NCBI RefSeq assembly: GCF_054482595.1
Contig: NZ_CM137008.1
Strand: one strand, 5' to 3'
Length of the DNA stretch: 64,000 nucleotides
In this document: one piece after another, positions 54,152 to 59,827 of the stretch
Numbering within the stretch: the stretch's first letter is position 1
Layout of the letters: each line of letters starts with the position of its first letter
Notes under the pieces: generated by a model
Seen by the model: only the letters and a program-made list of their open reading frames with translations
Database searches by the model: none
What the model was told of the DNA's origin: nothing
Made by a program: the position numbers and the translations under genes

Positions 54152-54266
54152 TGAGGGACGTATTTGTATTAGTCGCGACTTGATCTGACACATGGCCTTG
54201 AAAGGTTGAGAGTTACCGGTTTTGATATGAGTGTCGAATCCTTATCCAAAACAAGAGGTAACTCTC

Positions 54267-54690
54267 ATGCTTCATACTGCCAATCCCGTCATCAAACACA
54301 AAGCCGGTTTGCTCAATCTGGCTGAAGAACTCAGCAACGTATCAAAAGCCTGTAAAATCATGGGCGTTTCGCGTGATACGTTTTATCGTTACCGCGAACT
54401 GGTCGCTGAAGGCGGTGTGGATGCGCAGATTAATCGTAGTCGCCGCGCTCCTAACCTTAAGAACCGTACCGATGAGGCAACTGAACAGGCTGTTGTTGAT
54501 TACGCCGTCGCTTTCCCGACACATGGTCAGCACCGGGCCAGCAACGAGCTGCGTAAACAGGGGGTTTTTATCTCCGACAGTGGTGTCCGTTCTGTCTGGT
54601 TACTCCATAACCTTGAGAATCTCAAAAGACGATACTGAACAAATTTTATCAGGTGACGTTCCGTAAAAAGTTGTATGGAGTTCTCGATGC
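54267..54690 (+). mobile_element. decayed DDE (integrase-core) transposase gene remnant, IS481/IS3-superfamily-like, with an internal deletion
   Basis: ATG 54267 MLHTANPVIKHKAGLLNLAEELSNVSKACKIMGVSRDTFYRYRELV... is an HTH N-terminal domain ending at TGA 54636-54638. A different frame continues LNKFYQVTFRKKLYGV (54635 onward), which is typical of the extreme C-terminus of rve-domain transposases. The catalytic core is missing and I recognised no inverted repeats. Confidence 0.55.
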
Positions 54691-54786
54691 AGTCGGCGCG
54701 ACTATCAGTACCCCCGCTGAACCCTGGACTATCGGGCCGCCGTACTGGGGCATGTCACCCTGGCGTGCCGCTGGTTTTCCGCTAAT
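54691..54786 (-). pseudogene. orphan rhs 5-prime fragment (32 codons of the PAAR-like N-terminus) with ATT in place of ATG
   Basis: The minus strand reads [34 protein letters not shown]. The intact rhs at 59827 reads [32 protein letters not shown]. It is preceded by an SD-like agagga. Similarity ends where the transposase remnant begins. Confidence 0.8.
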
Positions 54787-55152: not shown

Positions 55153-55644
55153 TTACTCTGCACAAGCATCAGGCAATCCAGCTCCAATATTTGTTATAAA
55201 ATAATGCGTAACATTAATTTCACCAACAAAAAAAAGATTTACGCTATCCCCTTGCCCTGGTATTTTACCATATTTACACCACACTTTTTTTGTATCTGGA
55301 TCATTCTTTGATACGATTTTCGCCACTTGTTCCCTGGCCCTCACCGTCAATGTTTTCTTAAACCTCCCCCCATCATCGATTGTTAGGGAAAAATAAGAAA
55401 AAAAATAATCATCTTCTACATTTGTGGATATTGATATATCCACCGCTACGTGCGGAAAAAAATCTGGGAGCCATGTAAAAACTCCATCATTTTCTGGTAT
55501 TGCCATATAGTTTATGTAATGCTTACTTACAAGAGATTCATCTTTGTGTAAATAAAGATAAGTAGTCACGCATAAAAAAACAACGATTATAATAGCAAAA
55601 ATAAATATTACCATCTTTGAGATGTTACTTGAGATAGCCACCAT
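55153..55644 (-). CDS. putative Rhs-toxin immunity protein, N-terminally membrane-anchored
   Basis: 163-aa ORF overlapping the rhs 3-prime end by 20 nt (alternative ATG at 55614). It has a hydrophobic N-terminus [22 protein letters not shown] and shares the AT-rich composition of the rhs tip. I recognise no family. Confidence 0.7.
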
Positions 55645-58600
55645 CTTGTAAAGCCTTTATCGTTTTTTTATGCTCTGGATTAATATAATCAATACATCTA
55701 TTTGAGCAATCTTGTGTTAATGGACATGTCAACCCATGTTCATTTACAGCCAAGTCTTTTTTATTATCTTCAATCATCTCAGAATGGGATAACTTTACTT
55801 TTCTGCCGTACATACCGAACATATTTAACCCGTAATCTCTAATCTCTTTTTCATAACCCAGCCCTTTCGCCGATCGGCTAACACCAGCGTCATTTAATTT
55901 AGACACTCGACAAAATGCCATACAATGGAAAAATTGATCAGTCCCACCTAAATTTAATCTCTTCATATCATCATAAGTATCAGATAATATATCCCATGCT
56001 CTTTGATGGTTTAGTTGTTCTTTTTTTCGCATTAACGCTACATCTGCAGGACTTAACCCTAATGGATCAATACCATTCACCGGATACGCATACAGACTCC
56101 ATCCCCCCGCCAGCCCAATCGGGTCCTGAGTAATATATCGTCCCAGCAACGGATTGTAGTACCGGTTCCGGTTATAATACAGCCCCGACTCCTCATCATA
56201 CTGCTGCCCTGGCAGACGGTACGGCTGATACACATGATGCGGGTTCTCCTCATTAAGCTGGTTGCCCCATTCATCATATTCCGCGCTCCACGCCGTATTG
56301 CCGTCTTCGCTGATAAGCGCCAGCGGCAGTCCCCGGTGGTCGCAGTGATAAAGATGAGCTTTTCGCGCCGGTGTGTATTCCGGCTCCACCTGTCTGGCCA
56401 GTTGCTCCACCGTCAGCCCGCACTGCGCAAGCCACGCCCGGCTTTCACTGCTCACGCGGTCTGCCCGGATTTCTTCCTCCAGTCTGTCCAGCAGCCGCAC
56501 CAGTTCAGCCGGAAATACCACGCCGTGCCCGTCCTCGCTCCCTTCCTGCTGCAGCTTCTCCGCCAGGCTGCGGCGCTGCGCTTTCTCCCGCTCGCCGTTG
56601 TCTGTTTCGATGCGGATGAGCGGCGCGAAGCTCCCCGGCTGATATACCGTCTGGATACGCGTGGTGTCGGTCTGTACCGTCGTCAGCCGGTCGCCGTCCC
56701 ACCCGTACCACGTCACCTCCGGTTTCCGCGACAGCGACATCCATCCCGTCAGGTCACGCTCGCGACGCCACACCCGTTTCCCTGTCCGGCGACCCAGCGG
56801 GTCGTAAAGGTATCGGCTCTCGACCAGCGGCTCCTCATATTGGATACGGATGTAATGGACCAGGCGGTGCAGGCTGTCGTAATGGTAGTGATGGGTGCGC
56901 TCGTCGTCCGTCCGTATCACACCCGCCGGGATGCGGTCCGTCTTCTCCGTCAGTCTGCCGTATTCATCGTAGTGGTAAACATAGTGCGCATCCTTCGCGA
57001 TGCGGTTATCCGGCCACACTGTGAGGGTACTGTCCGGGTGCAGCTCCGGGTCCGGCAGGCGGTTTCCCGCCGGGTCGGTGGCATACGGGATGCGGATGTC
57101 CAGGTCCGGTGCGAGGGTACGCACGCTCTCCAGCCTGCCCGTGGCGCTGTAGCCGTATTCCCGCGTCTGTCGCGGGCCGCTGATGCGCACCAGGTCGCCG
57201 TTGTCATTCCACCCGTAGTCACGGTCATACACCAGGCTGTTCAGGTGCTGGCTCTGTAACTGGCCTGCGGGGGTGTATGTGCTGGTCAGTTTATATGCGG
57301 CATTACTGCCTGCCATGCTGCCAAAGCTGCGCACCGTCTCCCGGTGCATGCGGTCGCGCGTGTACTCCAGCAGCGGCGTGTCGCCAAGCTTCATGCCCGC
57401 CAGATAACCGCTGCCGTAGGTCAGCCACTCCACCGGCGGCAGGCTGTCCGGCGTGACGCGGTTTGCCAGCCCCTGTTCGTTGTAGGCGTGTGTTGTCTCA
57501 TGCTGCCACAGCAGTTCCCCCGTCTCCGGGTTCTCCACCGTCTGCCGTTCGCCGGTCAGGCGGCCCTTATCGTCGTAGCCGTAGTGGACAGCGACACGGT
57601 GGCCTTCGCTCAGGTGGCTGATGTCTGTCAGCCAGCCGTGGTCATCATACTGCCACTGCTCTGCCGGTTCGCCGTTCACCGTGCGGTGAGTGATACGGTC
57701 CGATTCATCGTAGTACCAGAGGGTGACAAGCCCCTCATCTTCACTCTGCGTGAGTTTTCCGGTCAGGTCATAATGATAACGCTGCGTCCGCCCGTCAAAG
57801 CCGCCCTGCTGTACCAACCGGTCCAGCGCATCGTAGCTGAAGTCGCTGTGGCTGCCGTTCTCGTTAGTCAGACTGATGACACGTCCGGCAGCATCGTACT
57901 CCATACTGCGCGTCAGCCCGCCCTGCGTGGTGCTGACCGCCTTTCCCCACGCATCGTACTGTGTCTCGCTCCGGTTGCCGTCCGGGGTGATAACGGCAGT
58001 CAGGTCGCCTGCGGCGTTGTACTCATACTGCGTTTCACGGCCCTGTGCGTCTTTCACCGAGGTTAACCGGCCACGGTTGTCATAGTGGCGGTAAAGGCTG
58101 ATACCTTCCTCGCGGTGAACCGCCGTCATCTGGCCGAAGCGGTCGTATTCATAGCGGGTCTGGTAGCCCGAGCAGTCGGTGAACGCCAGCAACTGACCGT
58201 AGCGGCTCCACGTCATCTGCCGGGTGCTGCCCGTCGCATCTGTTGTCGTGGCCGGTAATTCACTGTGCGCATCATCATAGCGGTAGCGTACTGTCTCCCC
58301 GCTGCGCGATGTCTCCGTTACCAGCCTGTCCAGTTCATCATATGCCCGGCGGCTCTCCAGCCCGTCCGGGGACACCACCGCCGTCAGCTGGTTCCCGTCG
58401 TTATAGTAAAATTTCGTCTCCCGCCCGTCCGGTGTGGTGATGTCCGTGATATCGCCGGACACCACATTCAGACCGTACTCTGTCCGCCGTCCCGCCGCGT
58501 CCGTCTGCGCCGTGAGCCTTCCTGCCGCGTCATACCCGCTGTGCGTGACGCTGCCATCCGCCAGTTCTTTTTTCACCACCCGTTTCAGCCCGCCTTCACC

Positions 58601-59827
58601 TTCTGTATGCAGCACCTCACGCCGGTTCAGGCTGTCGGTGACGGTGATGCGGTCCTGCTCATACTGGTAGCGGTAACTCAGGCCTGCCGGGTTAAGCTGC
58701 TCCACCACCCGCCCGGTATCGTCGTAGCGGTAGCGCATCTCCGGCCTTCCCGCATAACGGTGCCCCACCATCCGGCCCGGGTGCTGCGCGTCATACGTGA
58801 AAGCGCGCACCTGTGTCCCGCTGCGGTCATATACCGCCAGCAGTTCACCGGCTTCCGTATACGTGTACCGCGCCAGTGGCGCTCCGGGCAGGCTCTCCGG
58901 GTATGCCGGGTCGTGCATCAGCCACACCGCCAAAAGGCGGATACCCCTGTCGGGGCCGTATTCGGTACCGGGCAGTGTGTCGGGGAACGCTGAGGCTGAG
59001 AGAGGGCGGGGTGTGTCAGGGGAAGATAAGGAAGCGGTGCGCTGTTTACGGGCCTCTTCCGCACGCTGCGCCTGCGTGGTCAGCACCAGACGGAACTCCC
59101 GCCCGGCACCGTCCGTCACGCCGGTGATTTCCCCGGCCAGGTCACCGGCGGCCTCACGCCGGTACGTCAGCGTCCGCCCGAAGCGGTCTGCCAGCCCGGT
59201 AAGCACCCGGTACGGCGGCAGCGGCGCTGGCAGTACGTCCTCAGCACCCGGCACCAGCTCTGACCACCCCAGTATCCACCACGGCCCCTGTGCGCTGTTG
59301 GTCGCCAGGTAAAGATGCGGGCTTAACCGGATATCCGGCGGCAGCGACGCCCACAGCCGTGCCAGCGTATGGCCGTCCGGCTGCGTTGCCTTACCGCCAC
59401 GCACCAGCCACAGGGACTCGCTGCGGCTGTACACCGCCTCACCCGGCAGCAGCGGCTCAAAGTGAATGCTCCGTCCGCCGTTGTCGTTGAGTACCAGTGC
59501 ATCATCGCGTATCTGTAAGCGGATATCAGAAGGCGCTTTCCAGCCGGGGCCAAAAATCCCCACCGGTGCAGGCGTCTTCGTCCGGTAGCTGCTGTAGGTG
59601 CGGGAGAGAATGAACGGCAGCGGGCCGGGCAGCGCAAGGTCCGTCTCGCCGGGCAGCACCTTCGCCCCCAGCAGCGGATTTACCGGGTTGCCCGAAGTCA
59701 TCCCGCCCGGACACACCGAGCACGCCACGCCAGTTGGCGCGCCAATTCTTACACCTGCCGAACCCTGGACAATGGGACCGCCATACTGAGTCATATCTCC
59801 CTGACGCGCCGCTGGTTTTCCGCTCAT
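55625..59827 (-). CDS. rhsD: Rhs-family polymorphic toxin (PAAR-like N-terminus, YD-repeat shell, DPLGL cleavage motif, variable C-terminal toxin domain)
   Basis: 1400-aa ORF with N-terminus [11 protein letters not shown]..., many YD repeats and core end ...[13 protein letters not shown] (56054-56068), followed by a 142-aa AT-rich tip. It lies between ybbP and mnmH, the K-12 rhsD position, so the symbol is positional only. Confidence 0.93.

Follow-up and report, generated by a model that had tools for sequence, protein, structure and literature searches.

Here, we describe a pair of genes, rhs and ybbD, at the E. coli rhsD locus in a 64,000-nucleotide stretch of contig NZ_CM137008.1 (NCBI RefSeq assembly GCF_054482595.1; this whole stretch is called the window below). 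The first gene is a full-length rhs encoding 1400 aa (55625..59827, minus strand), with a DUF6531 domain at residues 46-123, RHS repeats, an RHS core domain at residues 1158-1193 and then a C-terminal toxin tip of 142 aa that follows a DPLGL cleavage motif (55628..56053, minus strand). The second gene, a candidate cognate immunity gene, is an open reading frame (ORF) of 163 aa (55153..55644 with the stop codon included, minus strand; WP_021556565.1) that is the intact form of E. coli ybbD. A first-pass annotation, made from the letters of the window, had read this ORF as a membrane-anchored immunity protein of the Rhs tip. Following it up by computation, we arrive, with a probability of roughly 75%, at the reading that YbbD is an inner-membrane-anchored, periplasm-facing cognate immunity protein of an Rhs toxin whose tip is like serum amyloid A (SAA) and belongs to the prok-SAA domains of the Lipocone superfamily.

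The rhs and ybbD genes

As had been proposed, ybbD starts before rhs has ended, so that the two share 20 nt, each read in its own frame (55625..55644, both minus strand). This arrangement is consistent with translational coupling, and both genes are uninterrupted in the window. The rhs core has a G+C content of 63.3% and the window as a whole 51.8%, but the ybbD ORF has 34.3% and the toxin tip 35.6%; 60-nt lines sampled along the sequence (22-48% in the ybbD ORF, 70% at 58501-58560) bear out the low G+C content that the ORF had been said to share with the tip. A small ORF that directly follows the tip on the same strand and shares its low G+C content is the layout of a cassette of C-terminal Rhs toxin and immunity gene. 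The start codon of ybbD is not settled between ATG 55644, which has AAGG 9 nt upstream and adds Lys10, the sole positive charge ahead of the hydrophobic helix of the product, and ATG 55614 (Met11), which matches the start used by a Kluyvera homologue; either would yield the same anchored protein.

The ORF is a real gene under purifying selection and no chance reading frame, because its ratio of nonsynonymous to synonymous substitution rates (dN/dS) is 0.35 against a 70%-identical homologue (0.21 for the tip), its product matches NCBIfam NF011298 (PRK14710) over residues 1-163 of 163 (372.8 bits; cut-off 326), and homologues extend to approximately 20% identity. RefSeq labels the identical protein 'YbbD family protein' or 'hypothetical protein', and clusters of homologues carry Pfam PF26610 'YbbD_head' (a precomputed assignment from a model newer than the Pfam copy scored here). 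The first-pass annotation had recognized no known immunity family in the sequence; this stands in that the YbbD family has no function assigned to it, but the family itself is catalogued (NF011298, PF26610). It is small: searched with a profile, 1.84 billion representative proteins yielded 48 clusters. The proteins paired with other Rhs tips in K-12, YdcD and YbfC, were compared with YbbD and are unrelated to it; NCBIfam NF007301 gave a weak match in this comparison.

In K-12, rhsD has a different tip and the partner ybbC. Two pseudogenes come next: ylbH, an orphan copy of the window tip, and ybbD, which differs from the window ORF by a 1-nt deletion in a run of eight T (T8) and a few substitutions. 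The tip and ybbD are attached to the main rhs gene in the window but form a displaced orphan module in K-12, and therefore travel as one cassette; the idea that toxin and immunity gene were acquired together thus gains support from the displaced ylbH-ybbD module. Cassette DNA is present in 2881 of 5426 complete E. coli genomes. The ylbH-ybbD module is also held by a contig labelled 'uncultured Alistipes sp.' (L020; CASFSC010000074.1), at 79-98% identity to E. coli; the contig almost certainly stems from Escherichia and was mis-binned into a Bacteroidota metagenome-assembled genome.

The locus is recognized as rhsD by the neighbors ybbP, mnmH and allS, with the gene order tesA-ybbA-ybbP, rhs (minus strand), ybbD, a 96-nt Rhs N-terminus remnant, a ylbG fragment, mnmH and allS. 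The remnant, found downstream of ybbD (54691-54786, minus strand) and corresponding to the K-12 pseudogene ylbI, abuts ylbG, a helix-turn-helix fragment derived from an insertion sequence (54231-54638, plus strand), and the two together look like the scar of an older rhs rearrangement. RNA polymerase-sigma70 holoenzyme binds in vitro at the ylbH/ybbD boundary of K-12 in genomic systematic evolution of ligands by exponential enrichment (SELEX) (PMC3946193), at a place that corresponds to approximately 55600-55700 in the window. This site is a hint that the immunity gene may have an internal promoter; a simple consensus scan of the coding strand within the tip found no sigma-70-like promoter. 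PADLOC returned no match.

The toxin tip and its linkage to YbbD

The tip is best described as a prok-SAA Lipocone domain, a remote relative of SAA that keeps the catalytic residues proposed for the superfamily. It scores 22.0 bits with the Pfam SAA model (PF00277; gathering score 30.8), which is matched individually by all nine tip homologues (best E 3.9e-5), and its six best sequence matches in the PDB are all SAA chains (E 0.2-0.7, none significant alone). Alignment of the tip profile to human SAA1 by hhalign gives a probability of 89% (E 2e-6), with DQFFHC placed on DKYFHA and VNEHG on ANEWG. The structure model of the tip is all-helical and of low confidence (predicted local distance difference test score (pLDDT) 53.6). 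Nine aligned tips are invariant at His59, Glu86, Asp89, Asn120, Gly123 and five Cys (alignment numbering), and share the motifs DQFFH59C, KE86IRD89 and VN120EHG123, with Leu in place of the motif's final Arg.

Bacterial SAA-like domains ('prok-SAA') have been placed in the Lipocone superfamily, for which the inferred active site consists of a conserved His in helix 2, a Glu in helix 3 and an Asp or Asn in helix 4 and works on lipid head groups that contain phosphate; for prok-SAA toxins an extracytoplasmic cleavage of lipid head groups is predicted, and the lipid II phosphatase TelC is the one characterized toxin of the superfamily (Burroughs et al., eLife 2025, PMC12419801). The Prok-SAA list of that study includes HAU8267270.1, an orphan tip from Kluyvera (P0030) that is 56% identical to the window tip, and the C-terminus of RhsD from enterohemorrhagic E. 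coli (EHEC) had earlier been modelled by threading as SAA1-like (PMC7216683). The tip probably targets lipid, and the activity predicted for its SAA domain is the cleavage of lipid or undecaprenyl-pyrophosphate head groups.

A locus search for YbbD homologues, run with a 10-sequence alignment subset, placed YbbD genes directly downstream of this tip family in E. coli, Kluyvera intermedia (loci L009-12), Yokenella regensburgei (L023), Phytobacter ursingii (L026) and Pragia fontium (L027), and in the same order in three metagenomic lineages (L005, L015 and L033), a total of at least eight lineages with five named genera. Hafnia alvei (L013) has a shortened 86-aa YbbD copy 53 nt downstream of its tip. 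In the seven intact pairs besides that of the window the coding regions overlap by 1-20 nt (20 nt, as in the window, in L005 and L015; 1-4 nt, as ATGA or TAATG, in Kluyvera, Yokenella, Phytobacter, Pragia and L033), which suggests translational coupling. Tip and YbbD also occur together as orphan modules, in K-12 (ylbH-ybbD) and in the orphan arrays of Kluyvera and Hafnia. Among the loci examined, no YbbD homologue was seen behind an intact tip of another kind.

Co-occurrence of the ORF family with the same tip had been named as a check on the pairing, and it came out positive. Compared with the window pair, tip and immunity protein are 88/70, 81/54, 62/35, 58/41, 58/40, 56/33 and 50/32% identical, and the divergence of the two is correlated across 28 pairwise comparisons of eight pairs, which are phylogenetically non-independent (Pearson r 0.84); YbbD is the more diverged of the two in every comparison (28 of 28). 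Such a pattern is the usual mark of a toxin-specific binding partner.

The same data bear on a different explanation, in which YbbD is periplasmic and anchored and travels with the tip but is no toxin-binding antidote, and instead shields or alters the lipid target, blocks entry or serves as an accessory factor. A YbbD gene stands without a tip at four to seven loci. Homologues at approximately 22% identity in Achromobacter-type genomes (YbbD_head genes at L028 3501-4145, L029 3501-3986 and L030 3501-3983) are flanked by an EAL/GGDEF gene on one side and a TctC gene on the other, at a conserved chromosomal site that has neither Rhs nor toxin close by, and further tip-less copies lie in a degraded Rhs array in Buttiauxella and in an Rhs orphan array (L031). 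Such standalone members may be orphan immunity genes or may have another role. Their presence in conserved non-toxin neighborhoods, of the Achromobacter type and in three enterobacterial genera, favors a function other than that of an antidote, as do a YbbD fold that finds no significant match among solved immunity proteins and the tolerance by O157:H7 of the toxin beside a broken ybbD (see below). However, YbbD evolves in step with the tip but more rapidly, the mark of direct and partner-specific recognition, whereas a protein that acts on a conserved lipid target should itself be conserved. The EagR/DUF1795-type genes that encode accessory proteins and chaperones of Rhs toxins are found upstream and have cytoplasmic products, which counts against the role of an accessory factor. 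We regard a non-antidote function as unlikely.

Predicted membrane anchor and topology, and comparable immunity proteins

As the first-pass annotation had noted, YbbD has one hydrophobic helix at residues 11-32 (55549..55614, minus strand) and is otherwise soluble. Kyte-Doolittle windows of 19 residues exceed 1.6 only within the N-terminal 34 or so residues (peak 3.0), and an AlphaFold2 model built on a 22-sequence alignment (mean pLDDT 91.7) has a single helix at residues 4-32 and, after it, 7 strands and 2 helices packed into a compact alpha/beta domain. The helix is predicted to be an uncleaved signal anchor with N-in/C-out topology, and residues 33-163 (55156..55548, minus strand), which carry the motif IP..DG..WLPDFFP, to form a periplasmic domain. 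This domain has two nearly invariant Cys, Cys123 (55276-55278, minus strand) and Cys161 (55162-55164, minus strand), both of which are retained by most homologues. Fold comparison of YbbD found no significant match to any solved immunity protein.

Every full-length YbbD homologue has an N-terminal hydrophobic segment, and in six relatives the transmembrane (TM) anchor is replaced by a lipobox (LSGC, LTAC, LCGC, LCAC, LYGC or ISC). Lipoprotein-type relatives include those of Phytobacter (L026 3444-3878) and Pragia (L027 3438-3878) and proteins P0071, P0072, P0077, P0078 and P0080, and five of the six lipoboxes are followed by Asp at +2 (for example LSGC-D, LTAC-D and LCGC-D). By the Lol-avoidance rule of enterobacteria, Asp at +2 keeps a lipoprotein in the inner membrane, facing the periplasm, and these relatives are therefore expected to be retained there. 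The family thus seems to have swapped two tethers of one domain to the periplasmic face of the inner membrane. E. coli YbbD itself was considered as a lipoprotein and rejected as one, with Leu at -1 in its 'VFLC' and a hydrophobic stretch too long for a cleaved signal peptide.

From these sequence rules YbbD is predicted to be anchored in the inner membrane with its soluble domain in the periplasm. Lys10, the sole charge before the helix, suggests an N-in signal anchor, and the conserved Cys, two in YbbD and five invariant in the tip, would suit an oxidizing compartment. The reverse topology (N-out/C-in), with the soluble domain in the cytoplasm and a toxin neutralized inside the cell, draws some support from the weak charge bias of the E. 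coli allele, which has one Lys before the helix and K, D, E and K after it, and which with the Met11 start has no positive charge before the helix at all. Homologues with a lipoprotein signal cannot put the domain in the cytoplasm, the Cys of both proteins speak for an oxidizing compartment, and the Lipocone family is predicted to be extracytoplasmic, with TelC countered in the periplasm by TipC (PMC12419801); we regard a cytoplasmic site of neutralization as very improbable. The earlier proposal that the toxin acts at the inner membrane or in the periplasm, made from the tether of the immunity protein, is now supported by the SAA-like Lipocone tip and by the TM anchor or lipobox of the relatives of YbbD.

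The window pair resembles the described Prok-SAA Lipocone toxins, in which a delivery module of the Rhs or type VI secretion system (T6SS) type is likewise followed by a tip and then by a gene for a membrane-anchored or lipoprotein immunity protein, with a periplasmic site of action predicted, as it is here (PMC12419801). The same study reports that the immunity proteins of Lipocone toxins are, without exception, TM proteins or lipoproteins with a periplasmic site of action (PMC12419801), and the YbbD family likewise has a TM helix or lipobox at the N-terminus. The Imm-SAA domain has a helix plus four strands and four absolutely conserved Cys (PMC12419801), while YbbD has two Cys, 7 strands and 2 helices; judged by its model, YbbD does not fit this published description, although the Imm-SAA label might still cover it. 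Nor does YbbD fit Imm-BamE (a two-helix hairpin plus three strands, BamE-like), and no BamE-like match was found. YbbD is not named in the text or the examined supplements of PMC12419801.

The TelC-TipC pair of Streptococcus intermedius serves as the working model for the window pair: TelC, also a member of the Lipocone superfamily, has an extracytoplasmic lipid carrier as its target and is blocked, likewise outside the cytoplasm, by the membrane-anchored TipC (PMC12419801). A further likeness is found in RhsE-YdcD of K-12 (NC_000913.3, 1527890-1530404; L017), where an Rhs tip is also followed by an overlapping gene whose product of approximately 160 aa has an N-terminal hydrophobic helix. The RhsE tip has D..HCxxxC and DL..N..G motifs that resemble the SAA-like tip of the window (blastp E 0.004), and RhsE is a candidate for a second E. 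coli toxin of the Lipocone type; YdcD differs from YbbD in belonging to family NF050020 (PDB 8wj5, 'double-wing domain').

Frameshifted alleles and the immunity reading

The genes of the window pair are the same as RhsD/RhsDI of EHEC EDL933 (z0651/z0654) and ylbH-ybbD of K-12 (b0499/b0501). They differ in that the tip is fused to a full-length Rhs and ybbD is intact in the window, whereas the K-12 and O157:H7 copies of ybbD are frameshifted and annotated as 86-aa fragments or pseudogenes. The frameshifts fall at two T8 tracts. Tract 1, at codon 80 of ybbD (55398..55405, minus strand), is the site of a T8-to-T7 change in K-12 and O157:H7; tract 2, at codon 137 (55228..55235, minus strand), is a second frameshift site in O157:H7 and in a cluster of 149-aa proteins (P0002). 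The 492-nt ORF holds these two T8 runs and three more runs of 7, and at least two T8 runs arise in 0.05% of shuffles. A 46-nt probe over tract 1 was found in 2759 complete E. coli genomes; it was matched exactly (at least 99% identity, T8 in frame) in 955 of the 2759 and at 95-99% identity in 1801, and four of four sampled records of the latter had a 45-nt span at 97.8% identity to the probe, as expected of the T7 frameshift allele. The T8 tracts could reflect the mutational fragility of Phe-Phe codons in AT-rich DNA, or could form an on/off switch that works by slippage.

O157:H7 TW14588 (L035; NZ_CP111095.1, 388-5060) encodes a 1398-aa Rhs with an apparently intact tip beside a ybbD that has T7 at both tracts, and in its lineage the toxin gene appears to have outlived its presumed immunity gene. 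A nuclease toxin beside a broken immunity gene would be hard to survive. The arrangement fits a toxin that is harmless in the cytoplasm and whose secretion is silent: if the toxin does no harm in the cytoplasm of its producer and the secretion system is missing (K-12) or silenced (EHEC), only attacking neighbors would make immunity necessary, and it could decay.

Decay also raises the question of whether the module is a relic in most E. coli, with an intact allele that has no current function and with neither gene expressed or used. The tract-1 frameshift in 1801 of the 2759 genomes carrying ybbD, the fact that K-12 has pseudogene copies only, and a T6SS of EHEC without bactericidal activity even in an hns mutant (PMC7216683) all point that way. 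Selection points the other way, with a dN/dS of 0.35 for intact alleles that share 70% identity, a T8 tract kept in frame in 955 genomes, and a 1400-aa Rhs and a ybbD that are both uninterrupted in the window; RNA polymerase holoenzyme is also bound in vitro at the ylbH/ybbD boundary of K-12 (PMC3946193). We judge it very unlikely that the intact allele is a relic.

Several observations weigh against YbbD as a cognate immunity protein. By extrapolation from the four sampled records, approximately 65% of the E. coli genomes that carry ybbD have the tract-1 frameshift, and the producer O157:H7 TW14588 survives with an apparently intact tip beside a doubly frameshifted ybbD; a broken ybbD beside an intact toxin is equally expected of a non-essential gene or of one without an immunity role. 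YbbD genes occur with no toxin nearby in Leminorella, Intestinirhabdus, Hafnia paralvei and Achromobacter-type genomes, the SAA match of the tip lies below the Pfam gathering score and its structure model has low confidence, and the topology of YbbD is predicted from sequence rules. It is mainly the broken copies of ybbD, sometimes beside an intact toxin, that keep our confidence in the immunity reading from being higher.

Under the immunity reading, the Rhs shell would free the 142-aa tip at the DPLGL motif, and the tip would be delivered into a neighboring cell, a T6SS being the presumed route. There the tip, as a soluble SAA-like Lipocone enzyme, would attack a phosphate-containing lipid head group that the inner membrane exposes to the periplasm. 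This lipid may be a cell-wall precursor linked to undecaprenyl pyrophosphate, as the example of TelC suggests, or a phospholipid. YbbD, tethered by its one N-terminal helix and with its 130-aa alpha/beta domain in the periplasm, probably with a disulfide, would bind and block the incoming tip. We infer the binding of YbbD to the tip, the protection it gives, the lipid substrate and the secretion route from the comparisons above.

The kind of system is known, and the pair has already been proposed in silico for EHEC, where the gene downstream of rhsD was named RhsDI, a putative immunity protein (PMC7216683). Neither the K-12 nor the EHEC source gave a mechanism, a topology or a co-occurrence test for the pair. 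New here are the linkage and co-divergence of tip and YbbD across genera, the lipoprotein and Asp+2 variants that would fix the compartment, the proposed link of E. coli ybbD and ylbH to the Lipocone framework, and the apparent pattern of decay at the T tracts. A more far-reaching version, that YbbD is a new immunity fold for SAA-like toxins, that the pair is tractable for the study of SAA activity, with YbbD as a specific inhibitor, and that the T8 tracts switch immunity on and off in natural populations, is put forward tentatively, and we think it rather doubtful as a whole.

If the immunity reading is true, it would give a function to a widespread E. coli 'hypothetical' gene, present in roughly one of every two complete genomes, with K-12 and O157:H7 carrying it as a pseudogene, and would add one more immunity family for the Lipocone toxins, a group defined only recently. 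The persistence of an intact toxin next to a decayed immunity gene would then illustrate that immunity to a periplasmic toxin is needed only against neighbors and not for production. The pair would also offer a simple bacterial assay for the chemistry of the SAA-type domain, a question that is posed for the human acute-phase protein as well.

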